From NCBI GenBank assembly GCA_035285865.1, contig JAYKHS010000028.1:44044-108043 (forward strand): a DNA stretch of 64,000 nt, given 5' to 3'. Source of the DNA: Candidatus Sericytochromatia bacterium. Lineage in GTDB: Bacteria > Cyanobacteriota > Sericytochromatia > S15B-MN24 > VGJW01. The translations under genes and the position numbers were made by a program. Numbering within the stretch: the stretch's first letter is position 1; every line of letters begins with the position of its first letter. The notes below the pieces were generated by a model that saw only the letters and a program-made list of their open reading frames with translations, had not been told where the DNA came from and did not search any database. Positions 18,475-39,782 of this stretch are shown one piece after another.

Positions 18475-18527
18475 ACAGGACCGTTGGCCCGGTGGCCTTC
18501 CGTCACCGGGCCAACGACCTCCTGCGT

Positions 18528-21206
18528 TCAGCGTTGGGCTGCTGCGGTGCCTTCGGCTTCAATGACGGCATGTGCCGCCGCCAGCCGGGCGATGGGTACC
18601 CGGTAGGGCGAGCAGCTCACGTAGTCGAGGCCCAGGCCGTGGGCAAAGGCGATCGAGGCGGGATCGCCCCCGTGTTCGCCGCAGATGCCCGTCTTGAGGT
18701 TCGCGCGCGTGGCCTTGCCGCCCTGCATCGCGAACCGCATCAACTGGCCCACGCCTTCCGTGTCCAGGACCTGGAAGGGGTTCGCGGGCAGCAGCTTGTG
18801 CTCCAGGTAATGGAACAGGAAGCTGCGCTCGGCGTCATCACGCGAGTAGCCCCAGGTCATCTGTGTCAGGTCGTTCGTGCCGAAGCTGAAGAACTCGGCA
18901 TCCTCGGCCAGTGTGCCGGCGACGAGCGCTGCGCGCGGCACCTCAATCATCGTGCCGAACAGCACGGGCACCGTCATGCCACGGCGCGCCTGGACCTCGG
19001 CCGCCACCTGCTCGAGCTGGGCCTTGGCAGCTTTGAGCTCGGCAGGGTGGCCGACGAGCGGCACCATGATCTCGGGCGCGCAGCGCAGACCTTCGGTCAG
19101 GACATCACAGGCCGCATCGAGGATGGCCCGCACCTGCATCGTGTTGATGTCGGGGCGCGTGATGCCGAGTCGGCATCCCCTGAGGCCCATCATCGGGTTG
19201 ACCTCGTGCATGGACTCGATCTGGCGAAGCATCCGCTGCTTTTCGGTGATCTCGTGGGCCGGGGCGCCGACGGCACGCAGGGCCGAGAGTTCCTCGTGCA
19301 ACTTCGTCGCGTTGGGCAGGAACTCATGCAGCGGGGGGTCGAGCAGGCGGATGGTGACAGGGTAGCCCTGCATCGCCCGGAAGATGCCCACGAAGTCCTG
19401 GCGCTGGAAGCCTTCCAGCGTGGCGAGGGCTGCCTGGCGCTCCTTCTCGGTGGCGCCCAGGATCATCTGCTGGACCACGGGCAGCCTGTCCGGGGCGAAG
19501 AACATGTGCTCCGACCGGCACAGGCCGATGCCCTCTGCACCGAATGCCCGCGCGCGCTCGGCGTCGTCCGGCGTATCGGCGTTCGCCCGAACCCCGAGGC
19601 GACGGGTCTCGTCAGCCCAGCGCATGATCTGCTGGAACTCGGTGCTGGGCTCCGGGGGAAGGGTCGGAACCAGGCCCCTGAGGACCTCTCCCGTCTCGCC
19701 GTTGATGGAGACGGCATCCCCCTTGTGCAGCACGGTGCCGTCCGGACACGTCAGGGTTCCTGCCTGCACGTCCACTTGCAGGGCTTCGCAGCCGACGACG
19801 CAGGGCTTGCCCATTCCCCGGGCGACGACGGCAGCATGGCTGGTGTTGCCACCGCGGCTCGTCAGCACGCCCTTGGCGGAGATCATGCCGTGGATGTCGT
19901 CCGGACAGGTCTCGGGCCTGACGAGGATGACCCCCTTGCCTTTCTCGGCCCACGCCACGGCCTCGTCCGGATCGAAGACGATCACGCCGCCGACCGTGCC
20001 AGGCGAGGCGGCAAGACCAGTGGCCAGAACTTCCGGGCTGAAGGAAGGATCGAGGCGCGGCAGCAGCATCTGGATGACGTGACCGGCATTCAGGCGCCGC
20101 ACGGCCTCGCGGGGCGTGATCAGGCCCTCACGGTACATGTCATGGGCGATGCGGGCTGCGGCAGCACCCGTTCGCTTGCCGTTGCGGGTCTGCAGCATGT
20201 AGAGGCGACCACGCTCGATGGTGAACTCGAGGTCCTGCATGTCCCGATAGTGGGTTTCCAGCATGCGGGCGACCTGGCGAAGTTGCGCCGCGGCCTCGGG
20301 AATCGTCGCGTCCAGTTCGTCGATGGGGCGGGGGGTCCGGATGCCGGCGACGACGTCCTCGCCTTGCGCGTTGGTCAGGAACTCGCCGTAGAGGCGTGCC
20401 TCGCCGGTATTGGGGTTGCGGGTGAAGCAGACCCCCGTGGCAGAATCCTCGCCCATGTTGCCGAAGACCATGGCCTGCACGTTCACCGCCGTCCCGAGGT
20501 CGTTGGGGATGCCTTCATGGCGGCGATACGTGACAGCCCGATCGCTGTTCCAGCTCCGGAAGACGGCCTCGATGGCCATCTTGAGCTGCTGCCAGGGGTC
20601 CTCGGGGAACGGGATTCCCAGCTCTCGCTCCACCAGGGCGAGGTAGGCTTCGGCCACGTCCTTGAGCGTCGCGGCATCGAGATCCGTGTCCAGCTTCGCG
20701 CCGACCTTGTGCTTGTACTGCTCCAGCAGGTACTCGAAGTTCCCGAGGCGCAGGCCGAGAACGACATTGCTGAACATCCCGATGAAGCGGCGGTACGCAT
20801 CCCACGCGAATCGGGCATTACCGGTCTGCTCGGTGACACCGGCGACGGTCGCACGGTTCAGTCCGAGGTTGAGGATCGTGTCCATCATCCCGGGCATCGA
20901 GAACTTGGCACCGCTCCGGACGCTGACCAGAAGGGGGTTGGCCGGATCCCCGAAGCGCTTGGTCGTGGTCTTCTCGACCTCGACCATCGCCTGGCGGATT
21001 TCGTCCTCGAGACCGTCGAGCTTGCGGTCGCCGCTTGCCAGGTAATCGAGGCAGACGGCCGTCGTGATGGTGAAGCCGGGCGGCACGGGCAGGCCTTGCG
21101 CAGCCATCTCGGCGAGGCCGGCGCCCTTGCCTCCCAGCAGGTCTCGGGACAGGCCCCTGCCGTCGCGGAAAAGCACGACACGGCGAGTGTCGGTCACTGT
21201 GGACAT
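18528..21206 (-). CDS. ppdK: pyruvate, phosphate dikinase
   Basis: About 890 aa. N-terminal PPDK nucleotide-binding region (GGKGAGLAEM...GLPVPPGFTITT). Central phosphohistidine region (GGNTSHAAVVARGMGKPCVVG). C-terminal PEP-utilising TIM barrel. Confidence 0.9.
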   Translation of the reverse strand: MSTVTDTRRVVLFRDGRGLSRDLLGGKGAGLAEMAAQGLPVPPGFTITTAVCLDYLASGDRKLDGLEDEIRQAMVEVEKTTTKRFGDPANPLLVSVRSGAKFSMPGMMDTILNLGLNRATVAGVTEQTGNARFAWDAYRRFIGMFSNVVLGLRLGNFEYLLEQYKHKVGAKLDTDLDAATLKDVAEAYLALVERELGIPFPEDPWQQLKMAIEAVFRSWNSDRAVTYRRHEGIPNDLGTAVNVQAMVFGNMGEDSATGVCFTRNPNTGEARLYGEFLTNAQGEDVVAGIRTPRPIDELDATIPEAAAQLRQVARMLETHYRDMQDLEFTIERGRLYMLQTRNGKRTGAAAARIAHDMYREGLITPREAVRRLNAGHVIQMLLPRLDPSFSPEVLATGLAASPGTVGGVIVFDPDEAVAWAEKGKGVILVRPETCPDDIHGMISAKGVLTSRGGNTSHAAVVARGMGKPCVVGCEALQVDVQAGTLTCPDGTVLHKGDAVSINGETGEVLRGLVPTLPPEPSTEFQQIMRWADETRRLGVRANADTPDDAERARAFGAEGIGLCRSEHMFFAPDRLPVVQQMILGATEKERQAALATLEGFQRQDFVGIFRAMQGYPVTIRLLDPPLHEFLPNATKLHEELSALRAVGAPAHEITEKQRMLRQIESMHEVNPMMGLRGCRLGITRPDINTMQVRAILDAACDVLTEGLRCAPEIMVPLVGHPAELKAAKAQLEQVAAEVQARRGMTVPVLFGTMIEVPRAALVAGTLAEDAEFFSFGTNDLTQMTWGYSRDDAERSFLFHYLEHKLLPANPFQVLDTEGVGQLMRFAMQGGKATRANLKTGICGEHGGDPASIAFAHGLGLDYVSCSPYRVPIARLAAAHAVIEAEGTAAAQR

Positions 21207-21290
21207 CGTTGTCTCCTCAGGTTGTCGGCCGCGCATCATCGAGCGGTCGGGTCGGTGGGTTATTGGGCAGCAATGAGGCTGCCGGTGGTT

Positions 21291-22190
21291 CTAGACGTAG
21301 GTTTCCTTGCGTTGGGTCAGTTCGAGGATTTCCGCGGCCGTTTCTTCGATGGCCTTGTGCGTCACGTCCACCACGGGACAACGCAGCTTGCGGAAGATGG
21401 TTTCGGCATAGTCGAGCTCGTCCGAGATGTGTTGGGCGCTGGCATAGGAGGCCGAACCCGTCAGGCCCAGGTTCTGCAGGCGCTGGGTGCGGATGTCTTG
21501 CAGCGTCGCGGGGTTCAGCGTCAGCCCGATGACGCGGCCCGCAGGCAGGGCGAAAAGTTCCTTGGGAGGTTGCACGCCCAGCACGAGTGGCACGTTGCTG
21601 GTCTTCAGGCCCCGGACCTGAGCGAGGTACATGCTGGTCGGCGTCTTGGACGTGCGGCTCACGCCGACGAGCACCAGATCGGCGAGGGCCAGGCCCTTGG
21701 GGTCCTTGCCGTCGTCGTACCGGATGGCGAACTCGATGGCTTCCATGCGGTTGAAGTAGGCTTCGTCCTTCTGGTGGAGCAGCCCGGCCTCGAAGTGGGG
21801 CTCGGCACCCAGGATGAGGCCCAGGACATTGATCAGAGCACCCAGGATATCCACGGTCGGGATGCCCTTGCGCTTGGCCTCGGCCTGCAGGGTTTCTCTC
21901 AAGCGCACGTCGACGATGGTGTAGGCCAGCACGCAGCGTGTCTGGGTGGCCAGCGTGACCATGCCGGTGATCTGCTCGATCGTTCGGGCGCGAGGCAGGC
22001 GCACCAGCTTGATGGGGTGGCCCTTGAACTGCAGGGCAGCCGCGCGCGCCACGAGCTCGGCCGTCTCTCCCGAGGCGTCCGAGACCGTGTAGACGGTCAA
22101 CGTTGCCCCATCCACAGCTGTTCCTCCGGGCCGCAAGGCCCAGTGGCATGCTATCGCCCGCGCCCCGGGTGCGTAAAGCATGGCGGGCAT
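21291..22190 (-). CDS. pyruvate, phosphate dikinase regulatory protein (bifunctional kinase/pyrophosphorylase, DUF299/PSRP)
   Basis: TVYTVSDASGETAE N-terminal signature. P-loop-like GVSRTSKTPTS. Located directly downstream of ppdK. The true start may be an internal GTG/TTG near VDGATLTVY. Confidence 0.8.
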   Translation of the reverse strand: MPAMLYAPGARAIACHWALRPGGTAVDGATLTVYTVSDASGETAELVARAAALQFKGHPIKLVRLPRARTIEQITGMVTLATQTRCVLAYTIVDVRLRETLQAEAKRKGIPTVDILGALINVLGLILGAEPHFEAGLLHQKDEAYFNRMEAIEFAIRYDDGKDPKGLALADLVLVGVSRTSKTPTSMYLAQVRGLKTSNVPLVLGVQPPKELFALPAGRVIGLTLNPATLQDIRTQRLQNLGLTGSASYASAQHISDELDYAETIFRKLRCPVVDVTHKAIEETAAEILELTQRKETYV

Positions 22191-22213
22191 TGTGAGAAGA
22201 GGGACTGCGGGGT

Positions 22214-22717
22214 ATGGAAGTTCAGGATGGTAACTTCCCCATGACCGAACGCCACGTCCTTAGCCGCCTCATCATCACGGAGGAGCTTGGTGCCCTCATG
22301 ACGCAGCAAGTCACCGAGCTTGCTGCGGAGGAGTCGATCGTGGGCTGCGCTGTTCTGGACGCCAGCGGCCTTACCTTGGCGCATGCCGGCGAGGGTCGGA
22401 TGGGAGACCCCGGCGTGGCGGCGCTGGTTGCCGCGTCCTTCCGAACCCTTGCGGAGCTTGCGAAGATGACGGGTGAGAATGCCCCCCAGACTTTCGTGTT
22501 GCCCGGAGTCGACACGAGGACCCTGTGTTTCCGGCTCGAGTCGGGTGACTTCCTGATCGTTCAGGCCACGGCAGCGACACCTGTCGAGGAGCTTGAGGCC
22601 ACCCTGCTTCCGGTGGAGCACGATCTCGGGGCCGCGCTGACGACGGCGCGTCTGGGGCCCGCTCCGGAACCGCTGCCTGACGCCTCGGCCCTCGACAACC
22701 TCTTCGGCGATCTCTAG
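22214..22717 (+). CDS. mglB: Roadblock/LC7-domain protein, MglB-like (putative GTPase-activating partner)
   Basis: Roadblock-like core (ESIVGCAVLDASGLTLAHAG...FLIVQA). C-terminal tail LPDASALDNLFGDL closely resembles the MglB C-terminus (...DDDIDNLFSE). Immediately upstream of the MglA-like gene, as in myxobacterial mglBA. Confidence 0.7.
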   Translation: MEVQDGNFPMTERHVLSRLIITEELGALMTQQVTELAAEESIVGCAVLDASGLTLAHAGEGRMGDPGVAALVAASFRTLAELAKMTGENAPQTFVLPGVDTRTLCFRLESGDFLIVQATAATPVEELEATLLPVEHDLGAALTTARLGPAPEPLPDASALDNLFGDL

Positions 22718-22726
22718 GCGATTCCG

Positions 22727-23308
22727 GTGGCCGTCCTCCACTACGGCAGGCGAGAGATCCGCTCCCGGGTGGCCTATTTCGGTCCCGTGGGCTCGGGCAA
22801 GGCCTCGAATCTCTTGGCGTTGCAGGACCTCTGGCCCGTTGAGCGCCGGGGAGCCGTCGTCGAGGCGACCCCGGAAAGCGAACGCGCCGTGCGTTGTTTG
22901 CGCCTGCCCATGCTGGGTGACCCGGTCGGCGACTGGTCGGTGCGGTTCGAGGCCTTCACGGTGCCCGGGCAGGCCCAGTTTCCGAGCACGCGGGCGAATC
23001 TGCTGGCCGGCGCCGACGGAGTCGTTTTCGTGGCCGACGCCGCCCCTGCCAGAAGAGAAGCGAACGTCGCCGCCTGGCACGAGTTGTTGGTCCACGTCGT
23101 GGCACAGGGCATCGATCCCGAGCGGATGCCCATCGTCATCCAGATCAACCACGCCGATGTCCGCGACGCCTTGGGCGTGGGGGAGATTGCGTCGCAACTC
23201 GGGGTCGAAGTCCGCCCTTCCTTCATGGCCATCGCCCGGGACGGCAGAGGTGTGCTCGAGGCCTGGATGGCAGTCGAGGGCCTGATCCGCATGGACTGGC
23301 GTTCATGA
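22727..23308 (+). CDS. mglA: MglA-like small Ras-family GTPase
   Basis: 193 aa. Aligns along its whole length with M. xanthus MglA: YGRREIRSRVAYFGPVGSGKASNL vs [24 protein letters not shown]. Conserved Arg (ESERAVRC). FTVPGQ. VDGVVFVAD. IVIQINHADV (NKxD-like). The P-loop reads GKA instead of GK[ST]. Confidence 0.85.
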   Translation: MAVLHYGRREIRSRVAYFGPVGSGKASNLLALQDLWPVERRGAVVEATPESERAVRCLRLPMLGDPVGDWSVRFEAFTVPGQAQFPSTRANLLAGADGVVFVADAAPARREANVAAWHELLVHVVAQGIDPERMPIVIQINHADVRDALGVGEIASQLGVEVRPSFMAIARDGRGVLEAWMAVEGLIRMDWRS

Positions 23309-25245
23309 AGGCCGCCTCCTCTGGCATCGGCAGCGCCCGGCCAGGCAATCTGTGGCGCGAGGCCGACGGACTGTACGACTTCATGAGCCGTGCGGTTCTC
23401 CTGCTGGTCGCCGAGCTCGATGATGCCGACGTGGCCTTCATGGTGCGGGAGGACCCTTCGCTGCCGTGGCGGGTGTCTGCGTCCCGTCCCGAATGGGAGG
23501 CCCAGTTGACGATGGCCTCGATGAGCGGTTTGCTGGCCGGCGTTCCGGCGCAGGGCTTCGAGGGATGGCAGGTTCGCGATCTGGAAGTCGAGAAGCCCGT
23601 GGCTGCCCGGCTGCTGACACGGGGCCCGGCACCGGCACAGGAATCCTGCGATGGCCTGGCGGCCGGCATCTCCCTCGTCATCGCACGGGACCGTCTGGCT
23701 CGGGCGGATGCCGGCATCGGCGAGATCGGGCGGGTGGTCCAGGCCTTGCGCCAGTTGGCTTCCAACATCCACCAGGCCGAGGATCTTTCGCTGCTGGCCG
23801 AGGTCGTCTGTGCCTCGGTGGCTCGTGCCACGGGCGCAGAGGTGGTGGCGCTCTACCAGCTCGAGGGCGATGCCTTCCGATTGACCGAGGAAATCGGCGT
23901 GCATCGCCCGGGCGTTTCCGGCATGGCGGCTGCACTGGCTGCATCGCTTGCGCCGCGGCAGCCCATTCCCCGGGATGAGGCGGGCTTTCTCTCCCAGGCG
24001 CTTTGGGAGGGGCGTCCGGTGGCCATTCCCAATATGGCGGCTGCTGACGGCGCGCGTGTCGGGCTTGGCCATTTGGGGCTGATGTCCGCGATGGCGGCCC
24101 CGCTGCTGACGCCTCTGGACGACTTGGGCGTCCTGCTCGTGGGCAGCCGTGCACCGCGCCTCTTCAGTCCGACCGAATTGTCCGAGTTGTCCGAGCTGGC
24201 CCAGGCGGCGTCGGGAGCCTTGCTGACGTGGCGGCTCCACGCGCGTGCCCAGGAGGAGTCGCGCAAGGCCAGCGAGCTCATCGCCCGGTTGCATGACCTG
24301 ACGCGCGCGACCCGTGAGGTCGGCAAGACGCTTGAGGCCAAGCACGCCTGCGAGGCCTGCGTGCGCCTGCTCCCGCAGTTCATGCGCCCTGCGGAGTGGG
24401 TTGATTGCTACCTCATCGAGGGCGACGCATGGCGGCTGGTGGCTGGCTCCAGTCCGCAGGACGCCAGCCCTCCCGAGTCCTGGCTCTACTACCTTGATCG
24501 TTCGGGCTATCCGCCGTCCTTGCGGCTCGAGTCCGATGCGCTGGCGGGCACCGGATTCGAGGATGCCGGACAGGTCCTGCTGTTTCCGATGCGCATGCAG
24601 CAGACCCTGCTTGGCCTGGTCGTCGTGGCGACGGAGCGCGACCTTGCCATGACCGGTCGGGACATGGCCGAGACGCTGGTGGCCCATGCGGCGTCGGCAG
24701 TCTTCAATGCCGAGCAGTGGCGACGGGCGCATGAGCGATCTATCACGGACCCGCTCACGGGGGTCCACAACCGTCGGCACTTTGTCGACGTCTTCGAGCA
24801 GGAACTGGCCAAGGCCGCCCGTTATCACCGGGAGTTCAGCGTGATTCTGCTCGACATCGATCACTTCAAGATGATCAACGATCGCCTGGGTCATCTGGCC
24901 GGGGACCAGATCCTGCGCGAGGTTGCGGCCCTGTTGCGCGACAACGTGCGCAAGGTCGATCTGGTCGCGCGCTACGGTGGGGAAGAATTCGCGTTGCTGT
25001 TGCCGGAGACCGGGGATGATGGTGCTCGTGCACTGGCCGAAAAGTTGCGGCATCGTTTCGAGGCACATCCCTTCAGCGACCAGGATCTGATGCCCGGGCG
25101 ACAGGTCACGGCCAGTTTCGGGCATGCCTCCTTTGGGCTGGACGGCACGACTGCCGAGCAGCTGCTGCAGGCCGCGGACGAGGCTTTGTATGCCGCCAAG
25201 CGGGATGGCAGGAACCGGGTAGGTTCGCCGTCGAGGAGAGCGTGA
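23305..25245 (+). CDS. GAF-domain-containing diguanylate cyclase (GGDEF)
   Basis: Two GAF-like regions followed by a GGDEF domain with intact active site (RYGGEEFALLLPE) and DxLTG region (ITDPLTGVHNRR). ATG overlaps the mglA-like stop (ATGA). Confidence 0.85.
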   Translation: MKAASSGIGSARPGNLWREADGLYDFMSRAVLLLVAELDDADVAFMVREDPSLPWRVSASRPEWEAQLTMASMSGLLAGVPAQGFEGWQVRDLEVEKPVAARLLTRGPAPAQESCDGLAAGISLVIARDRLARADAGIGEIGRVVQALRQLASNIHQAEDLSLLAEVVCASVARATGAEVVALYQLEGDAFRLTEEIGVHRPGVSGMAAALAASLAPRQPIPRDEAGFLSQALWEGRPVAIPNMAAADGARVGLGHLGLMSAMAAPLLTPLDDLGVLLVGSRAPRLFSPTELSELSELAQAASGALLTWRLHARAQEESRKASELIARLHDLTRATREVGKTLEAKHACEACVRLLPQFMRPAEWVDCYLIEGDAWRLVAGSSPQDASPPESWLYYLDRSGYPPSLRLESDALAGTGFEDAGQVLLFPMRMQQTLLGLVVVATERDLAMTGRDMAETLVAHAASAVFNAEQWRRAHERSITDPLTGVHNRRHFVDVFEQELAKAARYHREFSVILLDIDHFKMINDRLGHLAGDQILREVAALLRDNVRKVDLVARYGGEEFALLLPETGDDGARALAEKLRHRFEAHPFSDQDLMPGRQVTASFGHASFGLDGTTAEQLLQAADEALYAAKRDGRNRVGSPSRRA

Positions 25246-26033: not shown

Positions 26034-26816
26034 TCAGGGACGGAGGAGGCGCATCGTCAGGATGCTGCCCTCATAGAGGAGCAACAGCATCCCGGCCATC
26101 ATGACCTGGGACAGCACGTCGGGCGATGGGGAGATCACGGCCCCGAGAATGAAGGCCCCGAGAATGGCCGGCCGCCGGAATGCAGTCAGTTGGCGCCATG
26201 TCACGAATCCGGCAAGGCCAAGCGCAACCAGGACGACTGGCAGTTCGAAAACCACGCCCGTGGCGAAGAGGAACAGCGCACAGAAATCCAAGACGGAGGC
26301 GACCGTCAGCATCGGCATGATGCTGGTCGGGGTGAAGGCGACCAGAAATTGGAAACCGATGGGCAGCAGGGCGAAGTAGGAGAAGGAGAGTCCGGCGGCG
26401 AAGAGGACCACGGCCCCGATGACGAGCGGCACGGCCAGACGCCGCTCTGCCGGCTTGAGGCCGGGTCTGATGAAGGCCATGACCTGCCAGAGGATGACCG
26501 GCAGCGCGACCGTAAGGCCTCCCAGGCCCGACATGTGCAGGGTCGCGAGGAAGTATTCGGCCGGACGGGTGGTCACCAGTTTGCCAAGGCCGCCAAGGGG
26601 ACCCTCGACCGGGGCCAGCACCAGCGGGATCAGTTGATCGTGCAGGCCGAAACAGCCTAGGAAGCCGACCACGAGGGCCGCGATCGAGACGAGCAGCCGA
26701 TGGCGCAGCTCTTCCAGATGCTCGACAGGACTCATCTCGCCCTGTTTGCGCCGCGGTTCGCTGGCCGCCGGGGTGGTCACGGCGGGTGAAGGAGTCAGGG
26801 GCGCCTGAGGTTCCAT
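26034..26816 (-). CDS. tatC: twin-arginine translocase subunit TatC
   Basis: 260 aa from MEPQAPL. Six TM helices. TatC signatures EHLEELRHRL, FxFAT-type motif (ALFLFATGVVFELPVV), and PD.S/GM.LL C-terminus (SPSPDVLSQVMMAGMLLLLYE). Confidence 0.85.
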   Translation of the reverse strand: MEPQAPLTPSPAVTTPAASEPRRKQGEMSPVEHLEELRHRLLVSIAALVVGFLGCFGLHDQLIPLVLAPVEGPLGGLGKLVTTRPAEYFLATLHMSGLGGLTVALPVILWQVMAFIRPGLKPAERRLAVPLVIGAVVLFAAGLSFSYFALLPIGFQFLVAFTPTSIMPMLTVASVLDFCALFLFATGVVFELPVVLVALGLAGFVTWRQLTAFRRPAILGAFILGAVISPSPDVLSQVMMAGMLLLLYEGSILTMRLLRP

Positions 26817-27424
26817 GACTGTCGCGATCCGTGCTTGGGGGGGCGCATGTGGCTCATGATGCGCCGCATGCGGCCGGGACCGGAAGAGGGTTCCGCGAGA
26901 AAGCGCACGGCAAATGTCTGATGGCCGACCTTGCGCAGGACGCGGATACGCTCTTCGAGCGCGCCGTCTCTCAACTCGAGCGTCACCGAGACGTCCTTGC
27001 CGACCGGCAGCGAGACGGGGCTGTGGAGCAGCATGCCGCCGCTGCTGACGTTCAGGGTGTGGCCTCTCGCCACGGCGCGCTCGAGCCTGAGGATGGCCGG
27101 GACCATCGCATCGAGACGCAGGGCGCCACGCTGGTCCCGGGAGGCCAGAGGGGCCGTTCCGGGCCTGGCTTTCCCGAGACCGAACTCGGGCAGAGCGGTT
27201 CGTATCTCCAGACGCTGACGCGCATGGATGAGCGGGACCTCGACAATGCCGGTCTGGCCATTGGGCCAGGTGATGACCACGTGGTCGGGCATCTCGACCG
27301 GTACGGGGAGTGCAAGCGTCACCTGACCCGCCATCACGGAACGGACCTGACCCTTGAGCAACAGCGGGCCCCACTGGACGTGGACCGGTTGTCCCGCTTC
27401 GAGGGGAACTCCGTCCGGGGTCAC
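26795..27424 (-). CDS. PilZ-domain protein (putative c-di-GMP receptor)
   Basis: RxxxR motif (ARQRLEIR) followed about 40 aa later by the (D/N)xSxxG motif (LNVSSGGMLL). 209 aa. Confidence 0.55.
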   Translation of the reverse strand: MTPDGVPLEAGQPVHVQWGPLLLKGQVRSVMAGQVTLALPVPVEMPDHVVITWPNGQTGIVEVPLIHARQRLEIRTALPEFGLGKARPGTAPLASRDQRGALRLDAMVPAILRLERAVARGHTLNVSSGGMLLHSPVSLPVGKDVSVTLELRDGALEERIRVLRKVGHQTFAVRFLAEPSSGPGRMRRIMSHMRPPKHGSRQSWNLRRP

Positions 27425-27987
27425 GGCTGGGGATGCTGGCTGGGCTCGATGAGCCCGTAGTTGCCGTCGCGCCTGTGGTAGATGACGGCAAACTGGCCTG
27501 TCAGCCGATTGTGGAAAGTCAGGAAGTCCTTGCCCGAGAGGTCGAGCTGATAGGCGGCATCTTCGGGGGCGAGGTCCAGCACGACGGCGTCGCGGATCCG
27601 AACGATCTGCGGAGCTTCGTCCACTTGCGTGGGTTCGATGGCGGCTTCCTCGGCCACGACGGCAACCGTCTTGGTCCGGGCGTGGCGCCTGTCCTCGAGG
27701 CGCTGCTTGTGGCGCTTGAGCTGTCGGGCAATCTTGTCCGAAACCAGATCGATCGACGCATACATGTCCGTCGAGGCTTCCTCGCCCCGAATCAGGGTGC
27801 CGTTGGCATGCAGCGTCACTTCCACGATCTGGTTCTCGGAAACGGACGGGTTGCGGATGACCGTCAACTCCACATGGGCTTGGCGGATGTCCTCCATGAA
27901 ATGGGTCACGCGGCCCAGTTTTTCGCGGGCGTAATCCTTCAGGGCGTCCGTGATGACGATGTTCTTGCCCTTGATCACCAGTTCCAT
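27421..27987 (-). CDS. hpf: ribosome hibernation promoting factor (long HPF)
   Basis: MELVIKGKNIVITDALKDYAREKLGRV N-terminus typical of HPF/RaiA. C-terminal extension as in long HPFs. Confidence 0.85.
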   Translation of the reverse strand: MELVIKGKNIVITDALKDYAREKLGRVTHFMEDIRQAHVELTVIRNPSVSENQIVEVTLHANGTLIRGEEASTDMYASIDLVSDKIARQLKRHKQRLEDRRHARTKTVAVVAEEAAIEPTQVDEAPQIVRIRDAVVLDLAPEDAAYQLDLSGKDFLTFHNRLTGQFAVIYHRRDGNYGLIEPSQHPQP

Positions 27988-32089: not shown

Positions 32090-33139
32090 GTGCGTCGTGC
32101 ATGTGGGGGCCCCTTGCTCGCCGCGATCGTGGCGCTGGCCACCACGGCTTGCGGTGTCACCGGAACCGGCATCCGCGATCTGGACCGTCCTGCCGCGGCC
32201 GCCCCCGATTTGCTGCCTGCGTTCGGTGGACAGGCCCAGCTCCTTCAGGGGGCTCCGGGTGGCGAGGCCTCCTGGCTTCGTCTCCAGGACGGCGCGCATC
32301 TGGTTGTCGTGGCCTCCGATCGACCCGGCGATCGGCATCTCTTCTTCGCGACCAGTGCCGACGGCCGCAACTGGTCGGCTTTCGTGCCGTTCACGACGGG
32401 CGCGCTGACGGACGTCGAGCCGGTGCTCTTCGCCTCTGCCCGCGGTGTCGAGTGCGTGTTTGCCTCCAATCGATGGCTTGCGCAGTACGCCCTCTACCGC
32501 ACGACTTTCCGCGACGGGCGCTGGTCTGAGCCGGTTCGCCTCGAACTGGGGGCTGGTCCGCACCGTGCGCCGGCCGTCGTTCGCTCCGGGGACCGTTGGC
32601 TGCTTGCCTGGCAGGGACCCGATGGCGTGCGGGTGGCGTCCTCCGCGGACGGTCAGGCTTTCGGTCAGGGACGACTGGTTTTGGCGCAGCATGGTGATCC
32701 GACGGTGGCCGCGGTCGGTCAGCGGGTCGTCCTCGTGGCGCACCAGCGCAAGGCGCTGACGGCAAGCGTGCTCGACGGCGAGACATGGTCCGTGCCGGCA
32801 CGGGTGCCCCTCGCGGCTCCGGCCTGGTCCCCGGCATTGGCCTCCGTGGCGACCGGAAGCGTGGCGCTGGCTTATGCGACCGCCCCCTCGGATCAGGCAC
32901 CGGCTGCCCTGGGCCTTGCCCGCTGGGCAGATGCGCGCTGGACCGACATGGGCCGTGCGCTGTCCACGTCTGCCGAACTGGCCGCACCGGCATGGTGTGC
33001 CGGTCCCCAAGCACCCTTGTCGCTTCTGCTGGGTATGGACCTTTCAGGTCTCCAGCAGGGTCTCGCCCGTGTCACGTGGTCCTCCTTCCCGGAGGACGCC
33101 TCTGCCTCGTCGCCCGCCGGAGGTCCCGTCAACCCATGA
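32090..33139 (+). CDS. lipoprotein, unknown function
   Basis: GTG start gives MRRACGGPLLAAIVALATTACG lipoprotein signal. The stop overlaps the start of the next gene (ATGA). Confidence 0.5.
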   Translation: MRRACGGPLLAAIVALATTACGVTGTGIRDLDRPAAAAPDLLPAFGGQAQLLQGAPGGEASWLRLQDGAHLVVVASDRPGDRHLFFATSADGRNWSAFVPFTTGALTDVEPVLFASARGVECVFASNRWLAQYALYRTTFRDGRWSEPVRLELGAGPHRAPAVVRSGDRWLLAWQGPDGVRVASSADGQAFGQGRLVLAQHGDPTVAAVGQRVVLVAHQRKALTASVLDGETWSVPARVPLAAPAWSPALASVATGSVALAYATAPSDQAPAALGLARWADARWTDMGRALSTSAELAAPAWCAGPQAPLSLLLGMDLSGLQQGLARVTWSSFPEDASASSPAGGPVNP

Positions 33140-34458
33140 GTGCATCCATGACTGCCGATCGCCGCCTGCTGGGCGAAGTGCTCGTCTCCGGCCAGTTCAT
33201 CACGGCCGAGGACCTCAATCGGGCCTTGTCCGAGCAGCGGGCCACCAACGAGCGCTTGGGCGAGGTGCTGGTCCGTCTCGGCATCCTGTCCGAAATGGAG
33301 TTGCATGCGGTCCTCGCCTATCAGGGCGTAGGTGACATGACGCCAGCGGAGCAGGGCGCCGCGGTCCGCTACAAGTTGGGTGAGCTCCTGCTCAAGGCGC
33401 GTCGCGTCAGCAAGCCCCAGCTGGAGCTTGCGCTCGCCGAGCAGGAGCGTACCAACGAACGCCTCGGCGAGGTGCTGCTGCGACTCGGTCTGATCTCCGG
33501 CTCCGAACTCGAAGCCGTGTTGACGTGGCAGGATGATCATTCCCGTCAGGGGGCCAAGGCCGTTCGCTTCGTGCTGGGCGAGGTGCTGGTCGCCTCGAAG
33601 GTCATCACCCGCGATCAGCTCGAGCAGGCCTTGGCCGAGCAGCAGCTCTCGCGTCGCCAGATCGGGGAAATCCTCGTCGAGGCGGGTTTCGTCAAGCAGA
33701 ACCAGATCCTCGAGGCCCTGCGCATTCAGGGCAAGCTGGTCGCAGCCTCGGTCATCGGCATCATCGGGGCCGCGGCACTGACGGGCTGCGGGACCGGAGC
33801 GAGCCTGACGGGCATGAGCGTGTCGGGACTGGCTGTCGATGCCAAGGGTAACCCCGTGGACAATGTCCGCGGGTCGCGCATTCCCTACAGCACGATGGTC
33901 CGGGATGTCCGGACCGTCGCCGGCATGCAGGCCACCCAGGACTTCGCCGATGGGTCCCGGACCGTCAAGGACGTGCCCTGGTTCCACCAGGCGGCCGTGA
34001 CGCGGGACGGTTCGCCGGACAACACCTGCGCTCAGGCCGCGATGTCCAGCGTGCTTCACTATTGGCAGGGCGACGCAGCACCCGCCTATCAGCAGGTGGT
34101 CAACGAATCGAACTACTTCAATCTCGCGACCAACCAAGGCACCATCACCGAGTACCTCAAGAAGAAGGGCCTCTCGGTCAAGGCTTACAAGAACGGGACG
34201 GTCAACTACCTGAAGAGTGCGGTGGACTCCGGAAAACCCGTCATCTGCATGTTGCAGTTCGAGGTGCCGCACTACATCGTCGTGGTGGGCTACAACGAAG
34301 CTCAGGGCACCATCATCTACCACGATTCGATCGACGGTCCCAATCAGACCCTGTCGGAGCGCAAGTTCCTCAAGCACTGGCACCAGACGTCCATGAAGGA
34401 CATGCCGCTGCTGGGCGGAGGCAACTACGTGGGGCTTGCCATCGAAGCCTCCCGCTGA
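33136..34458 (+). CDS. protein with six tandem T2SSE_N/MshEN-like repeats, a TM/lipobox-like segment and a C-terminal papain-like C39-type peptidase domain
   Basis: Six repeats of LGE(V/I)L(V/L)..G.I(S/T)..(Q/E)L..AL..Q. Hydrophobic segment ending LTGCG. C-terminal domain with candidate catalytic Cys (DNTCAQAAMSSVLHYW) and His (HYIVVVGYNEAQGTIIYHDS), as in C39-like peptidases. Confidence 0.65.
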   Translation: MSASMTADRRLLGEVLVSGQFITAEDLNRALSEQRATNERLGEVLVRLGILSEMELHAVLAYQGVGDMTPAEQGAAVRYKLGELLLKARRVSKPQLELALAEQERTNERLGEVLLRLGLISGSELEAVLTWQDDHSRQGAKAVRFVLGEVLVASKVITRDQLEQALAEQQLSRRQIGEILVEAGFVKQNQILEALRIQGKLVAASVIGIIGAAALTGCGTGASLTGMSVSGLAVDAKGNPVDNVRGSRIPYSTMVRDVRTVAGMQATQDFADGSRTVKDVPWFHQAAVTRDGSPDNTCAQAAMSSVLHYWQGDAAPAYQQVVNESNYFNLATNQGTITEYLKKKGLSVKAYKNGTVNYLKSAVDSGKPVICMLQFEVPHYIVVVGYNEAQGTIIYHDSIDGPNQTLSERKFLKHWHQTSMKDMPLLGGGNYVGLAIEASR

Positions 34459-34525: not shown

Positions 34526-34598
34526 GGGCGATTAGCTCAGTTGGTCAGAGCGCACGGTTCACATCCGTGAGGTCCACGGTTCAAGTCCGTGATCGCCC
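34526..34598 (+). tRNA. tRNA-Val (anticodon CAC)
   Basis: Acceptor GGGCGAT/ATCGCCC. D-arm GCTCAGTTGGTCAGAGC. Anticodon stem-loop CACGG-TTCACAT-CCGTG. T-arm CACGGTTCAAGTCCGTG. Discriminator A. Confidence 0.85.
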
Positions 34599-34605
34599 AC
34601 CTCCA

Positions 34606-34727: not shown

Positions 34728-35507
34728 ATGAATCCCTCCTTCCTTCGCCGTGTCCGCCGACTCCCGGCTGCGCTCGGGGCGGTCGTCGCCTTGATGGGCC
34801 TTGTCGGTTGCGGACGCCCTGCGACGACTTCCGCGGTGCCCCGCGGTCCGGTCGCGCCCATGCTGCAGCCGTCGCCCCAGCAGCCCGTGCCCGGCCAGGA
34901 CGGGGCCCGGATGGCGACCGAGATCCGCGGTCGGGTCGGCATGGCCTATCAGGGTGCCACGTCCATCCAAGCCAGCCTGAAGTCTTACATCCACAACGTT
35001 CAGACGGGCAAGACGGCCCGCTACGTGCTTGACAGCTGGTTCCAGAAGCCCGGTCGTTCCGCCTACAAGGTCCGTGAGTCGACCGAGGCCAGCACTATTG
35101 GCACCAAGATGATCGTCGACGGCAACGGACAGGTGCAGGTGCGCACCAAGTTCGCCGGCTTCTGGGTCAACACCACCCTGCCAGAAACCGACGAGCGGAC
35201 AAGGACCGCGCGCGGAGACGGGATGTCGGATACCGCCTTGCCGCGCATGATGCAGGTTTTGCTCGATCCGCAGGCCCAGGTACAGTTCCTTGGTCAGGCT
35301 CAGGTGGCCGGCCGTCAGGTCTCGATTCTGGAACTCCGCAGCGCGATGATGCTGCCGCGCGTCACACACGAGCGCTATGCCATCGACATGGCGACAGGCA
35401 TGCCCTACAGCCGCGAGTGCTACGAGGCCGGCAAGCTGACCTATCAGCTGACCATCGAACAGGTCCGCCTCAACCAGCCCGATCCGGCCGCCTTCCTGCT
35501 GCAATGA
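34728..35507 (+). CDS. lipoprotein, unknown function
   Basis: MNPSFLRRVRRLPAALGAVVALMGLVGCG lipoprotein signal. The stop overlaps the rsmG start (ATGA). Confidence 0.5.
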   Translation: MNPSFLRRVRRLPAALGAVVALMGLVGCGRPATTSAVPRGPVAPMLQPSPQQPVPGQDGARMATEIRGRVGMAYQGATSIQASLKSYIHNVQTGKTARYVLDSWFQKPGRSAYKVRESTEASTIGTKMIVDGNGQVQVRTKFAGFWVNTTLPETDERTRTARGDGMSDTALPRMMQVLLDPQAQVQFLGQAQVAGRQVSILELRSAMMLPRVTHERYAIDMATGMPYSRECYEAGKLTYQLTIEQVRLNQPDPAAFLLQ

Positions 35508-36755: not shown

Positions 36756-37688
36756 TTAGTGCATGCTCCACGTGCGTGAGGCTGCCACGCGGCCGATATT
36801 CTGCCTGAGTCGCTGGCCAATGCCAGGCTCCGCTGCGACCAGGCGAGCATAGTCCTCCAGGAGAAAGACCAGGGCCTTGCTGGCGGCGACAGCCGTGACC
36901 GTGGCACTGCGCACGGGTTTGCTCTGGATCAGGGCTGTCTCACCGACGATCTGATCCGGACCCAGACGCGCGAGCGCGAACGGACGACCATTCTGAATCA
37001 CGGAGACCTCGAGTTGGCCTTCGAGGATCAACAGGAAGCTCGTGGCCGGATCTCCGGTCTGGAAGAGCTCCATGCCTTCGGCAAGAGGGACCACGCGTGC
37101 CACGGACTCGAGGGCGAGGCGTTGTTCATCCGTCAGACCCGAGAAGACCGGATGCCGCCGGATGCGTTCGAGTCGCGCCGCGCGCTCCTCCGAGATGCCC
37201 GTGGGTTTGGGCATCGCGAACTTGCCAGTCTTCGGGGCCTGAGCGTTGGCTGGTTCGGGCTCAGGCTTCTTCTTGGACTGGCTCGCCCACTCCCGCGTGG
37301 CCACGACCCGCCCGAGGTTGCTCCGAAGCGTCCTGCCCAGCTTGGGGTCCTGCTCGCTCAGCGCCTGATAGCCTGCGTACATGAAGCGATAGAGCTTGGC
37401 ATCGGAAACGGCCACGACATCGGCTCGTCGTTCGGTGTCGTGCTGGATCAGGGGCATCTCGCCCACAAGCTGTCCCGGAGCGATGGTGGCGACCGCCATG
37501 TCCTGAACCCGCACCTCGAGACGGCCTTCCACCAGCATGAAGAAGGCGTCTGCCTCGTCTCCCGTTCGGATGACGGCCTGACCCGCCTTTGCCGTGACCC
37601 GTTCCGCAATGGCAAAAAGCGCATCCAACTCAGCGGCCGAGAGGCCCATGAACGCAGGCAGCATCTGCAATCGGGCATGGTTCAACAT
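36756..37688 (-). CDS. tandem cyclic-nucleotide-binding (cNMP/CAP-family effector) domain protein
   Basis: Two copies of the cNMP-binding core (GDEADAFFMLVEGRLEV ... GEMPLIQ and GDPATSFLLILEGQLEV ... GETALIQ). No DNA-binding domain detected. Confidence 0.7.
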   Translation of the reverse strand: MLNHARLQMLPAFMGLSAAELDALFAIAERVTAKAGQAVIRTGDEADAFFMLVEGRLEVRVQDMAVATIAPGQLVGEMPLIQHDTERRADVVAVSDAKLYRFMYAGYQALSEQDPKLGRTLRSNLGRVVATREWASQSKKKPEPEPANAQAPKTGKFAMPKPTGISEERAARLERIRRHPVFSGLTDEQRLALESVARVVPLAEGMELFQTGDPATSFLLILEGQLEVSVIQNGRPFALARLGPDQIVGETALIQSKPVRSATVTAVAASKALVFLLEDYARLVAAEPGIGQRLRQNIGRVAASRTWSMH

Positions 37689-37775
37689 CCTGCGGCTTCC
37701 TCTGCCATGCACCTACCCGTCCGGAGAGCAGGTAAACGGGGGTGGCGACGGCCACAGACGGACCCACGGTCGTCG

Positions 37776-39782
37776 GTGCATCGTCAAACCGTGCTGCAAC
37801 GTCGACGTGTCGCCCGAGGACGGCACTTGCCCGTGGTCGCGGCCCTGCTCTGGGTCGCGGACCTCCCCGTTGCGCGCGCGGCACCCGGGCCTGTGGCTGG
37901 TCCCGTGGCGCCTGCCGTGCACGAACGCCTCGGGGAGCTGCGTCTGGTGGGGCTGGCCGGGGTTGTCCGCAGCAGGTTCAAGTTGTCGAATCCGGATCGC
38001 GAGGTCCTGGACCTGTTCGGTGTGCAGCCTCCTCCGGCCTACTGCGCCTCGCGCGTCTGGGAGGATGCTCGTGGCCGGGTGCTTTTGCGCAGCGGTTGGG
38101 ATGCTGCGCTGCGCCGCTGGCGCTTCGTCCGTTCTGCCGGAGACGGCGCGGGTGCCGACGTCGAGGATGCCGGCGGCACGTTGGTCTTCCGTGGGCCGGG
38201 GCTGCACGCCGCCCTGAAGGGTGCATTCGCCCCCGTGATGATGCGTCCGAATGGACGTACCGGTGCGACGGCCTCGGTCGGCGTTGCACCCGGCACGGCG
38301 ACCGCCGGGACGCCGCGTCCGACGGGCCCTGCGGTCCCGACTGCGCCACCCGTTCGTCTGGTCACGCGGCCTTTCGACCCACCCGAGCCATTGGCAACAT
38401 GGGGGCCGTTGCTGCCTCTGTGGCAACCCGCGCCCCGTGCATCCGTCCGACCGATCCCATCCGTGCGTCCTGCGAATCCGACACCTGCTCCCAGGCACTC
38501 AATGCTTCCGCCGGCGACGGCGGCCGTTGCTGTCGTCCTGCCACCGCTTCCGCTACCCCCGTTGCATGGCGTTCATCCTCGTCAGACCGTGCGGACTGGC
38601 CCGGAGTTGTTGGGCCCCTTCCTGCCGGCCATGTATCTCGGACCTCCGGTGCCCCGGGCCGTTGGGCAGCCAGCGGTCGGGGCTGCCGACGGTGGGCCGC
38701 ATGGGCGTGCCCTTGCTGCAAACGGATCTTCTCGACCGGCGTGGGAAGTCGTCCGTCACGGTACCGATGACGAGGGTGAACCGGATGTGCTGGCGCAGGC
38801 ACCTTGGCCGCGGTCGCCGCAGCGCATCGAGCGACTGTCGCTCCGGAAGCAGCGCCAGGACACGGTCTTCGAGGTCGTGGCAGCCGGGGCGCTGACGGTC
38901 TGGATGGAGGCCCAGCCCCGTGACGCGCGCTGGATCCTGCGCTTCCCCAGGGCCGAAGTCCCGGCGGCCCCGCCACGTCCGCGCGGGGCGACGCGCCGAC
39001 TTGCGCTCGGGCGCGACACGCGATCGTGGATACTCACGCTGGAACTGGATCCCGGCCAGTATGACGTCGAGGAGACGCGCATCAATGATGGTCGCGGCCT
39101 GCAATTGCGTTTCCATCGCCGCAGAACCGTGCCGGGGGATCGACCGGTGGTCGTGCTCGATCCGGGTCACGGCGGGGCGGACCCTGGTGCACGGGGCCCG
39201 ATGGGGGTCACGGAGAGTCAGGTCACGCTCGACGTGTCCCGACGCCTGCGTCCCCTCCTGGAACATGCCGGCTTCCACGTGGTGCCCACCCGGACGATCG
39301 ATGCCGCCGTTCGCCTCGGCGATCGCGCAGCACTTGCCGAAAGCCTGGACGCCACTGCCCTGATCAGCATCCATTGCAATTCCAGCCCGTTGCGCGAGGC
39401 CCGGGGCATCGAGACGTGGTTCCGCCACGAGGCCGGGTCGGGGCTCGCGCGCAAGGTGCACGAAGCGCTGGTCAAGGCCACGGGGCGTCCAGATCGAGGT
39501 GTCCGCCAGGGGCGTCTGATGGTGCTCAAGACGCCCGGCCTGCCGGGTGTCCTGGTGGAGATAGGGTTCCTGTCCCATCCCGACGAGGGCAACAGGCTCC
39601 TCGACGAGGAGCATCAGGCCCAGATGGCCGAGGGACTGGCACGCGGCCTTCGGCTGCTGGTCGAATCTGGCGAAGGAGCTGGAACCGTGGGGCGGCGGCG
39701 TCTACAGGACCAGCGAACTGGTGAGCCAAAGGTAGGAGCCCTTGGCATTCCCGAAAAGGCCCCCCACCGTCCCCGTGGCTAG
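37776..39782 (+). CDS. amiC: N-acetylmuramoyl-L-alanine amidase (AMIN-like N-region + Amidase_3 catalytic domain). Start uncertain.
   Basis: C-terminal Amidase_3 motifs (VVLDPGHGG.DPGA, SIHCNS, ETWF). Candidate Tat-like signal (QRRRVARGRHLPVVAALLWVA) if the GTG at 37776 is the start. The upstream part of the 922-aa ORF is antisense to the cNMP gene and is not considered coding. Confidence 0.65.
   Translation: MHRQTVLQRRRVARGRHLPVVAALLWVADLPVARAAPGPVAGPVAPAVHERLGELRLVGLAGVVRSRFKLSNPDREVLDLFGVQPPPAYCASRVWEDARGRVLLRSGWDAALRRWRFVRSAGDGAGADVEDAGGTLVFRGPGLHAALKGAFAPVMMRPNGRTGATASVGVAPGTATAGTPRPTGPAVPTAPPVRLVTRPFDPPEPLATWGPLLPLWQPAPRASVRPIPSVRPANPTPAPRHSMLPPATAAVAVVLPPLPLPPLHGVHPRQTVRTGPELLGPFLPAMYLGPPVPRAVGQPAVGAADGGPHGRALAANGSSRPAWEVVRHGTDDEGEPDVLAQAPWPRSPQRIERLSLRKQRQDTVFEVVAAGALTVWMEAQPRDARWILRFPRAEVPAAPPRPRGATRRLALGRDTRSWILTLELDPGQYDVEETRINDGRGLQLRFHRRRTVPGDRPVVVLDPGHGGADPGARGPMGVTESQVTLDVSRRLRPLLEHAGFHVVPTRTIDAAVRLGDRAALAESLDATALISIHCNSSPLREARGIETWFRHEAGSGLARKVHEALVKATGRPDRGVRQGRLMVLKTPGLPGVLVEIGFLSHPDEGNRLLDEEHQAQMAEGLARGLRLLVESGEGAGTVGRRRLQDQRTGEPKVGALGIPEKAPHRPRG

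Follow-up and report, generated by a model that had tools for sequence, protein, structure and literature searches.

The 64,000-nucleotide stretch of DNA considered here (the window; positions 44,044 to 108,043 of contig JAYKHS010000028.1, assembly GCA_035285865.1, from a Candidatus Sericytochromatia bacterium) contains two overlapping genes on the + strand: a lipoprotein gene (32090-33139), and a gene (33136-34458) encoding a 440-residue precursor, in which three MshEN_N modules come first, then a signal peptide of the lipoprotein type, a tether and finally a C39-like peptidase domain. The second gene, termed here the MshEN-C39 gene, begins with an ATG (33136-33138) that overlaps the TGA of the lipoprotein gene (33137-33139) as ATGA (33136-33139), an overlap already read correctly in a first-pass annotation made from the sequence alone. 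A Shine-Dalgarno-like GGAGG (33119-33123, + strand) can be read directly 12 nucleotides 5' of the ATG, within the end of the upstream gene. Good support for the start comes from the closest homologue (P0001, 93% identity, likewise 440 residues), which begins at the same place. About 70 full-length homologues were found at 42-93% identity, with two outliers at 28-33%, and their hosts are exclusively metagenome-assembled genomes (MAGs) of the Candidatus Sericytochromatia type, including those labelled Tanganyikabacteria and Blackallbacteria; homologues in three of these genomes are 90-93% identical to the window protein, for whose exact sequence the look-up returned no database record. Database annotation of the homologues is limited to 'C39 family peptidase'.

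The N-terminal part of the precursor contains six 24-residue motifs, starting at residues 11, 40, 80, 109, 146 and 175, arranged as three pairs with an offset of exactly 29 residues within each pair. This 24 + 5 + 24 layout defines the 53-residue MshEN_N unit (PMC5013675), a receptor domain for cyclic di-GMP (c-di-GMP). Module 1 (33166-33324, + strand, residues 11-63) comprises motifs LLGEVLVSGQFITAEDLNRALSEQ and RLGEVLVRLGILSEMELHAVLAYQ with the spacer RATNE, module 2 (33373-33531, + strand, residues 80-132) comprises KLGELLLKARRVSKPQLELALAEQ and RLGEVLLRLGLISGSELEAVLTWQ with the spacer ERTNE, and module 3 (33571-33729, + strand, residues 146-198) comprises VLGEVLVASKVITRDQLEQALAEQ and QIGEILVEAGFVKQNQILEALRIQ with the spacer QLSRR. 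The NCBIfam model NF053729 ('cyclic di-GMP-binding domain, MshE-related') matches in three stretches (155.8 bits, cut-off 38, E 1.7e-46), and searches against PDB sequences return Thermus thermophilus PilF, which has three GSPII domains, and Vibrio cholerae MshE (5HTL), with module 2 aligning to the c-di-GMP-binding GSPII-B domain of PilF (8PDK) and module 3 to residues 8-58 of MshE. Scanned in all six frames with a loose version of the motif, the whole window gave five matches in this open reading frame (ORF) and frame, and one spurious match elsewhere. The first-pass annotation had described six MshEN/T2SSE_N-like repeats and had named the Pfam family T2SSE_N (PF05157) as the profile to compare them with: the MshEN-type c-di-GMP motifs stand, but they make up three two-motif modules, and T2SSE_N gave no match in the window protein at E<=1, the strong match being instead to the NCBIfam MshE-related model. 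Because T2SSE_N is unmatched and the linkers between modules are just 12-19 residues long in nearly all homologues, the ligand-binding MshEN_N subdomain is taken to be present alone, three times, without MshEN_C.

The residues expected to contact the ligand are retained. In an alignment of 66 full-length homologues, on which all residue invariance counts given here are based, L2, G3, L6, L17, L21 and Q24 are near-invariant across all six motifs. L2, G3, L17, L21 and Q24 are the positions that contact c-di-GMP, while L6 belongs to the packed core of the bundle; affinity drops more than 10-fold when L2, G3, L17 or L21 is mutated singly, and the isolated MshEN_N subdomain binds c-di-GMP with a dissociation constant of 0.35 uM (PMC5013675). 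The modules are also the best-conserved part of the protein, with a mean identity to the window protein of 60-63%, compared with 52% for the peptidase. Position 1 of motifs 1 to 6 is occupied by L, R, K, R, V and Q in the window protein, and by M/L/K/R, R/K, R/K, K/R, L/M and Q in the family. In PilF the Arg at this position is dispensable, R, K or L being allowed, and Lys or a hydrophobic Leu raises affinity (PMC11731258). PilF GSPII-C furthermore carries a tolerated K at position 11 (our alignment; binding data from PMC11731258). From these features, binding of c-di-GMP by at least one module appears likely; module 2 is probably the best candidate, and module 1 probably comes next in its fit to the consensus.

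The third module is followed directly by a hydrophobic segment, which the first-pass annotation had noted without recognizing its nature. Residues 201-217 form an uncharged 17-residue hydrophobic region (h-region; LVAASVIGIIGAAALTG) preceded by R196 and K200, and end in L-T-G-C218 (Cys codon 33787-33789), which, coming after basic residues and closing a short h-region, conforms to the lipobox pattern [LVI][ASTVI][GAS]C. Cys218 is present in 66 of the 66 homologues, and Gly217 in all except two (64/66). The stretch that follows is rich in Gly, Ser, Thr and Pro, as is typical of lipoprotein tethers, and residues 219-235, the 17 after Cys218, include none with a charge. The segment (33733-33789, + strand, counted from K200) is thus predicted to be a lipoprotein signal peptide, which starts at residue 200, behind three modules, rather than at the precursor's N-terminus. 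An N-in/C-out topology is expected because of the basic residues N-terminal of the h-region and the 17 uncharged residues after the Cys. Lipidation of Cys218 is fairly probable on these features, and cleavage of the precursor by the signal peptidase LspA is about evenly poised between likely and doubtful. The tether and a small β-rich N-terminal extension of the predicted mature part follow (33790-33960, + strand, residues 219-275), variable across the family and Gly/Ser/Thr/Pro-rich.

The C-terminal domain (33961-34455, + strand, residues 276-440) is assigned to the C39-like papain-fold cysteine peptidases by Pfam, profile search and structure prediction. The window protein matches Peptidase_C39_2 (PF13529; 44.1 bits, cut-off 24, E 4e-11), Peptidase_C39 (PF03412; 29.1 bits, cut-off 22) and Peptidase_C70 (29.2 bits, cut-off 19), and a profile of the domain searched against PDB sequences returned the 'putative C39-like peptidase' 3ERV of Bacillus anthracis (1.2e-7). 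In an AlphaFold2 model of residues 219-440, with a predicted local distance difference test (pLDDT) score of 84.6, the first 8 residues of the tether score below 50 and those beyond 66-84. A Foldseek search with this model matched 3ERV (2.5e-5) and the peptidase domains of ComA, LahT150 and PCAT1 (7e-5 to 4e-4), with a probability of 1.00, and further matches were a papain-like toxin, the phytochelatin-synthase-like Alr0975, staphopain and the pseudomurein endoisopeptidase PeiR. Gln285 (codon 33988-33990), Asp295-Asn-Thr-Cys298 (Cys codon 34027-34029), His379 (34270-34272) and Asp397-Ser398 (Asp codon 34324-34326) are invariant in the 66 sequences. The C39-like fold, with the Cys of DNTC and the His of HYIVVVGY as proposed in the first-pass annotation, is therefore borne out by Pfam, where both Peptidase_C39 and Peptidase_C39_2 exceed their cut-offs, by Foldseek and by conservation. 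Modelled as a cysteine peptidase of papain fold, the domain has its Gln/Cys/His/Asp set intact and is likely to be an exported, active enzyme.

The immediately upstream gene (32090-33139, + strand) encodes a lipoprotein with a signal peptide, the lipobox ATTAC (Cys21, codon 32150-32152) and a predicted β-propeller fold. Its lipobox Cys aligns in 16 of 16 sequences (the window and 15 orthologues), and a BNR/Asp-box motif, SADGRNW, lies at 32354. Pfam BNR_2 matches weakly, and a profile of the protein searched against PDB sequences returns the Asp-box regions of sialidases. The AlphaFold2 model, built from 10 database sequences and of moderate confidence (pLDDT 69, core 73-94), gives Foldseek matches to PLL/PHL lectins and GH33 sialidases (E 3e-8 to 1e-6). 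An active sialidase was considered and rejected, the invariant columns being just Gly, Ser, Asp, Trp, Pro, Asn and Leu plus the lipobox Cys, without an invariant Arg triad, Tyr or Glu; the propeller protein is probably non-catalytic. The gene lies immediately 5' of the MshEN-C39 gene in the five related loci L001-L005 and in 16 GTDB loci, which upholds the coupling to an upstream lipoprotein gene claimed at first reading, and it is present at every examined locus with a MshEN-C39 orthologue at least 43% identical.

The nature of the internal signal peptide is clarified by paralogues. Sericytochromatia genomes hold several C39-like lipoprotein paralogues, with at least four copies in JADMKE01 (MAG_89). 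Those with the C39-like domain only (L049, L051-L053, L056-L058, L060 and L061) are ordinary lipoproteins with a short N-terminal signal peptide, homologous to the internal one of the window protein and ending, for example, in ..LLLLSAC|SPPVVPTQ or ..SLFLMAC|QPPTVPLQ. Their starts are preceded, 6-36 codons upstream, by an in-frame stop, and a test for gene fission found no separate MshEN gene beside them. Other paralogues are fused to two (L040, L041, L047, L048, L050), three (L036, L037, L039) or four (the L024 clade) MshEN_N modules, and carry the same lipobox, C-xPPxVPxQ motif and h-region (13-14 residues) as the C39-only proteins. Because the C39-only lipoproteins share the signal peptide, lipobox and C-xPPxVPxQ motif, the fusion proteins are read as lipoprotein precursors in which a sensor has been placed before the signal peptide. 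Downstream of the four-module paralogue (L024 4962-6488) lies a gene for a conserved 422-aa protein (L024 6609-7877; also in L022, L023, L025 and L030), whose motifs GKGTCAAAS and GHAMALVG resemble those of another papain-type peptidase.

The same arrangement occurs far beyond this family. When 1.84 billion representative proteins were searched with a profile of residues 1-225, 224 of them matched at E<1e-30. In about 110 of the inspected sequences of this class, the last motif leads directly into a short hydrophobic stretch, followed by a lipobox or by a small-residue (AXA-like) c-region compatible with signal peptidase I, and the members tested with NCBIfam have three c-di-GMP motif domains. 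In 17 proteins without a C39 domain, MshEN_N x3 leads into an h-region of 13 residues and then L-[ST]-[AG]-C-GGG (often L-T-A-C-GGGG); such an h-region is too short for a transmembrane helix. The C-terminal domains in the class include Big_7, Big_13, fn3, β-helix/pectate-lyase-like domains, paired-CXXCH (multihaem) cytochromes c, SLT and C39_2, and are, by their family assignments, typical exported domains. The commonest member has about 365 residues, with a C-terminal part of about 160 residues without an assigned domain, and the hosts of the class (P0074-P0272; e.g. P0142, P0161, P0137, P0140 and P0113) are MAGs labelled Nitrospirota, proteobacteria, Acidobacteriota and Desulfosarcinaceae. 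The MshEN fusions listed in the literature are with ATPases, glycosyltransferases, REC, HD-GYP, CheA/CheX, cyclases and Ser/Thr kinases; neither exported proteins nor peptidases are among them (PMC5013675). Literature searches combining MshEN with peptidase, lipoprotein or signal peptide, and searches for an internal lipobox, returned nothing on an MshEN_N plus signal-peptide architecture.

The geometry of the precursor bears on how the sensor could act. Only two residues separate the last c-di-GMP half-site, which ends at Gln198, from the h-region. The stretch between the first residue of motif 6 and the Cys measures 44 residues in all but one of the 66 sequences (65/66), whereas that from Cys218 to the oxyanion Gln285 varies between 52 and 89 residues across the family, with a mean identity of 27%. 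Given this fixed spacing on one side and variable tether on the other, the sensor is predicted to be rigidly registered to the signal peptide and loosely joined to the enzyme. Because of the half-site two residues from the h-region, the fixed register and the loose tether, control of the signal peptide is favoured over direct allosteric control of the catalytic domain, which appears less likely.

In the reading preferred here, an exported, lipid-anchored C39-like peptidase is made from the MshEN-C39 gene as a precursor with a cytoplasmic c-di-GMP-binding extension of about 200 residues ahead of the signal peptide, and c-di-GMP controls its processing. The cytoplasmic N-terminus would bind c-di-GMP at one or more of the four-helix MshEN_N modules, while the C-terminal part would be translocated and Cys218 modified with diacylglycerol by Lgt. 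The ligand would then act on the signal peptide, determining whether the precursor is kept at the inner membrane or cut by LspA and released. As to feasibility, internalized prolipoprotein signal sequences were reportedly modified and processed in the work of Hayashi et al. in 1985. The released product would be a mature lipoprotein peptidase, which may cleave an envelope protein or a cell-wall peptide, and the co-expressed propeller lipoprotein may be its partner, regulator or substrate. As a whole, this reading is given an even chance, and the same balanced judgement is reached separately for its central step, the control of output by c-di-GMP. The proposal in the first-pass annotation of a possibly c-di-GMP-responsive envelope protease is a fair reading, because the membrane segment puts the predicted sensor inside and the peptidase outside. 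For the wider class, it may tentatively be suggested, as a possibility that we regard as doubtful, that MshEN_N triplets are ligand-controlled extensions of Sec or lipoprotein signal peptides, through which c-di-GMP, bound where the last module adjoins the h-region, gates processing, release or export of the attached envelope protein.

Several observations weigh against this reading of the locus. Position 1 of motif 6 is an invariant Gln, outside R/K/L; only the even motifs (2, 4 and 6) keep the turn Gly at position 10, which is Q, K or R in the odd ones; positions 11 and 12 are hydrophobic in the consensus, yet position 11 of motif 3 is R or K, resembling the I19R change of the non-binder XpsE; and the published relaxed pattern fits motifs 2 and 4 only. 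In PilF, just two of three such domains bind c-di-GMP (PMC11731258). The propeller gene is absent from the clade of MshEN-C39 homologues at 33-35% identity. The invariant Cys218 could serve another role, and if LspA cut the precursor constitutively, the sensor would be severed from the enzyme, so that control would need an unprecedented mechanism. A literature search found no natural case of a folded 200-residue domain ahead of a lipoprotein signal peptide.

Among the alternatives, the one that survives best concerns the substrate only. The enzyme may be a cell-wall endopeptidase that acts on peptidoglycan peptides, as do the lipoprotein MepS and C39_2 domains in phage endolysins, rather than a protease that processes proteins: Peptidase_C39_2 is catalogued among endolysin catalytic domains, PeiR is among the structural matches, a lipoprotein position near the wall would suit this role, and an AMIN-Amidase_3 gene lies about 3 kb downstream in L001, as does its apparent counterpart in the window. 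This is judged less likely than not, since the best sequence and fold matches are to 3ERV, of unknown function, and to the leader-peptide proteases ComA, LahT150 and PCAT1; the Pfam scan found no cell-wall-binding domain in the window protein, and the synteny with the amidase does not extend to more distant orthologues.

A somewhat weaker alternative retains the topology of the preferred reading and dispenses with cleavage. The hydrophobic segment would be an uncleaved signal anchor, and c-di-GMP would change the oligomeric state or conformation of the protein and thereby switch the periplasmic peptidase, as in a LapD-LapG system made of one polypeptide. The N-in/C-out orientation, which sets a cytoplasmic receptor beside an extracytoplasmic cysteine peptidase, is as this model requires. 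The N-terminus of the tyrosine kinase EpsG also matches the motif (TIGR03029), in a region that adjoins a membrane segment in such kinases. NfrB has MshEN-type motifs after two predicted transmembrane helices (PMC8669469), and LapD/LapG provides a precedent for the inside-out control of a periplasmic protease (PMC3032545, PMC3032553). A signal anchor is nevertheless judged rather unlikely, in that rigid transmission through so variable a tether is improbable, for a stable anchor, an h-region of 17 residues (13-14 in the fused paralogues and other class members) is short, and the invariant lipobox Cys common to the true lipoprotein paralogues would be left unexplained.

The motif deviations listed above, at position 10 (motifs 1, 3 and 5), position 11 (motif 3) and position 1 (motif 6), could also mean that the modules are degenerate and have become a cytoplasmic scaffold or oligomerization element, or bind another ligand such as 3'3'-cyclic GMP-AMP (cGAMP). 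PilF GSPII-A (PMC11731258) and XpsE (PMC5013675) are MshEN-like non-binders, and MshEN is reported to bind cGAMP too (PMC5013675). This alternative appears improbable, because L2, G3, L17 and L21, the residues with more than 10-fold effects on affinity, and Q24 are near-invariant in all six motifs, each module passes the curated NCBI domain model, conservation along the protein is highest in the modules, and the position-1 Arg is dispensable, with hydrophobic residues there able to raise affinity (PMC11731258).

The two remaining alternatives are far weaker. The tight coupling of the two genes, and Foldseek and profile matches that include the papain-like toxin/immunity pair 9L5U and CdiA-CT toxins, would suit a toxin/immunity or protease/inhibitor pair with a harmful papain-like C39 effector and the propeller lipoprotein as its inhibitor. 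Such a pair is unlikely, given that PADLOC returned no match, no secretion-system or polymorphic-toxin context was seen, synteny of the locus with housekeeping genes holds throughout the class and the partner is absent from many homologues, although this negative evidence is weak. Double-glycine leaders are removed at the cytoplasmic side by a transporter-borne domain, as in the peptidase-containing ABC transporters (PCATs), and a canonical C39 bacteriocin-processing role, which the first-pass annotation had connected with this domain and which the Pfam Peptidase_C39 match and the closeness of the fold to ComA, LahT150 and PCAT1 would allow, is set aside as extremely improbable, because no ABC domain was found in the window protein (Pfam) or in the neighbouring genes (window and L001-L005) and the domain, of the C39_2 branch, lies on the exported side of the signal peptide, in the wrong compartment; nor does the partner have a conserved Gly-Gly site, its cleavage as a double-glycine substrate having been rejected because the N-terminal Gly-Gly, found in some orthologues, is missing in L007 (at that site), L009, L010, L013 and L014.

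With regard to the source of the ligand, the window contains a GAF-GGDEF gene (23305-25245, + strand) whose product retains GGEEF intact together with an RxxD I-site, and a PilZ gene (26795-27424, - strand) with RxxxR and NxSxxG, which abuts tatC; because these motifs are present, the organism is predicted to use c-di-GMP signalling. A 485-aa ORF (26034-27491) holds TatC at its residues 257-466, and the PilZ-tatC-hpf arrangement is repeated in L001 and L004. The first-pass annotation had seen a fit between these genes and the sensor; they do exist, 5.7-9.8 kb upstream of the locus, but the link is circumstantial, with several genes between. In the window these are hpf, ymdB, the RNase Y gene and thiL, on the other strand, thiL being divergent and upstream of the locus, and recA also intervenes in L001 and L002. 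A search for a c-di-GMP riboswitch or other RNA element in the window found that only two tRNAs reach Rfam gathering scores; no sigma-70 promoters were found, and terminator-like sites occur at chance level.

Downstream, a tRNA-Val(CAC) gene (34526-34601) lies 67 nucleotides past the stop of the MshEN-C39 gene, and in L002 the presence of an integrase, helix-turn-helix genes and a PD-(D/E)XK gene in the downstream region is suggestive of an island. A lipoprotein gene at 34728-35507, whose signal peptide ends in LVGC, is kept in the three closest genomes only and has no Pfam, NCBIfam or PADLOC match. Downstream genes as part of the system were ruled out, being conserved in the closest relatives only. 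An ORF at 36756-37712 (- strand) matches by position a cNMP_binding gene of L001. Another at 37014-39782 (+ strand) has a C-terminal part resembling N-acetylmuramoyl-L-alanine amidase, and its L001 counterpart carries AMIN and Amidase_3; because the two ORFs overlap on opposite strands, the amidase start is expected to lie well inside the second. Further upstream, two very long ORFs overlap on opposite strands (18243-22244, + strand, 1333 aa; 18528-21239, - strand, 903 aa), the former without a Pfam match at E<=0.001. No match to anti-phage defence was returned by PADLOC.

The switch between motile and attached life is governed by c-di-GMP. To our knowledge, few routes exist by which c-di-GMP acts across the inner membrane, LapD/LapG being the textbook case. 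The locus described here would offer a second, differently built trans-membrane route, in which an MshEN-type receptor is joined to the export signal of a protease. If it is true that the module controls signal-peptide processing or release, this would be a new regulatory principle for the maturation of lipoproteins and secretory proteins, allowing post-translational second-messenger control of which proteins reach the envelope, in hundreds of clusters from several phyla; the proteins so controlled elsewhere would include adhesin-like Big/fn3 proteins, a β-helix enzyme, a cytochrome and a lytic transglycosylase. The locus would also open c-di-GMP signalling to functional study for the first time in Sericytochromatia, the non-photosynthetic sister lineage of cyanobacteria, represented here by MAGs only.

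Compared with known systems, the sensor resembles MshE, the GSPII-A, -B and -C domains of PilF and Escherichia coli NfrB in having two 24-residue motifs and a 5-residue spacer that make up a 53-residue four-helix unit, keeps the ligand-contacting Leu, Gly and Gln positions of MshEN receptors and, like PilF, has the unit in triplicate. Unlike the MshEN consensus, its odd motifs lack Gly10 and motif 6 begins with Gln, and unlike MshE, PilF and NfrB, it consists of MshEN_N only and has as its output an exported peptidase behind a signal peptide, rather than an ATPase or glycosyltransferase. The enzyme shares with C39 and C39_2 proteins (ComA, PCAT1, LahT150, 3ERV, FapD and endolysin domains) the papain fold, the Gln-Cys-His-Asp order and the local motifs Q..DNTC, HY.VV.GY and HDS. 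Unlike C39 proper, which forms the cytoplasmic N-terminal domain of an ABC exporter, it is predicted to be exported, is apparently lipid-anchored and has an additional β-rich N-terminal extension. The signal peptide is like those of ordinary prolipoproteins, the substrates of Lgt and LspA, in its basic n-region, short h-region, lipobox Cys and flexible tether, and shares the post-Cys motif with the C39-only Sericytochromatia lipoproteins; unlike in ordinary prolipoproteins, it is situated at residue 200, behind three cytoplasmic domains. In its logic, the proposed system is closest to LapD/LapG of Pseudomonas fluorescens, in which a cytoplasmic c-di-GMP receptor, located at the inner membrane, governs what a periplasmic cysteine protease does to envelope proteins (PMC3032545, PMC3032553). 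Here, however, the receptor is MshEN_N, as opposed to the degenerate GGDEF-EAL with HAMP of LapD, and the protease is C39-like rather than LapG-like, no LapD/LapG-type family being matched in the Pfam scan at E<=1; both functions reside in one precursor, and they are linked by a lipoprotein signal peptide in place of a periplasmic docking domain. The MshEN receptor and the C39-like peptidase are thus known components, and what is newly recognized is the lipoprotein signal peptide between them and the placement of the same sensor module before many exported proteins.

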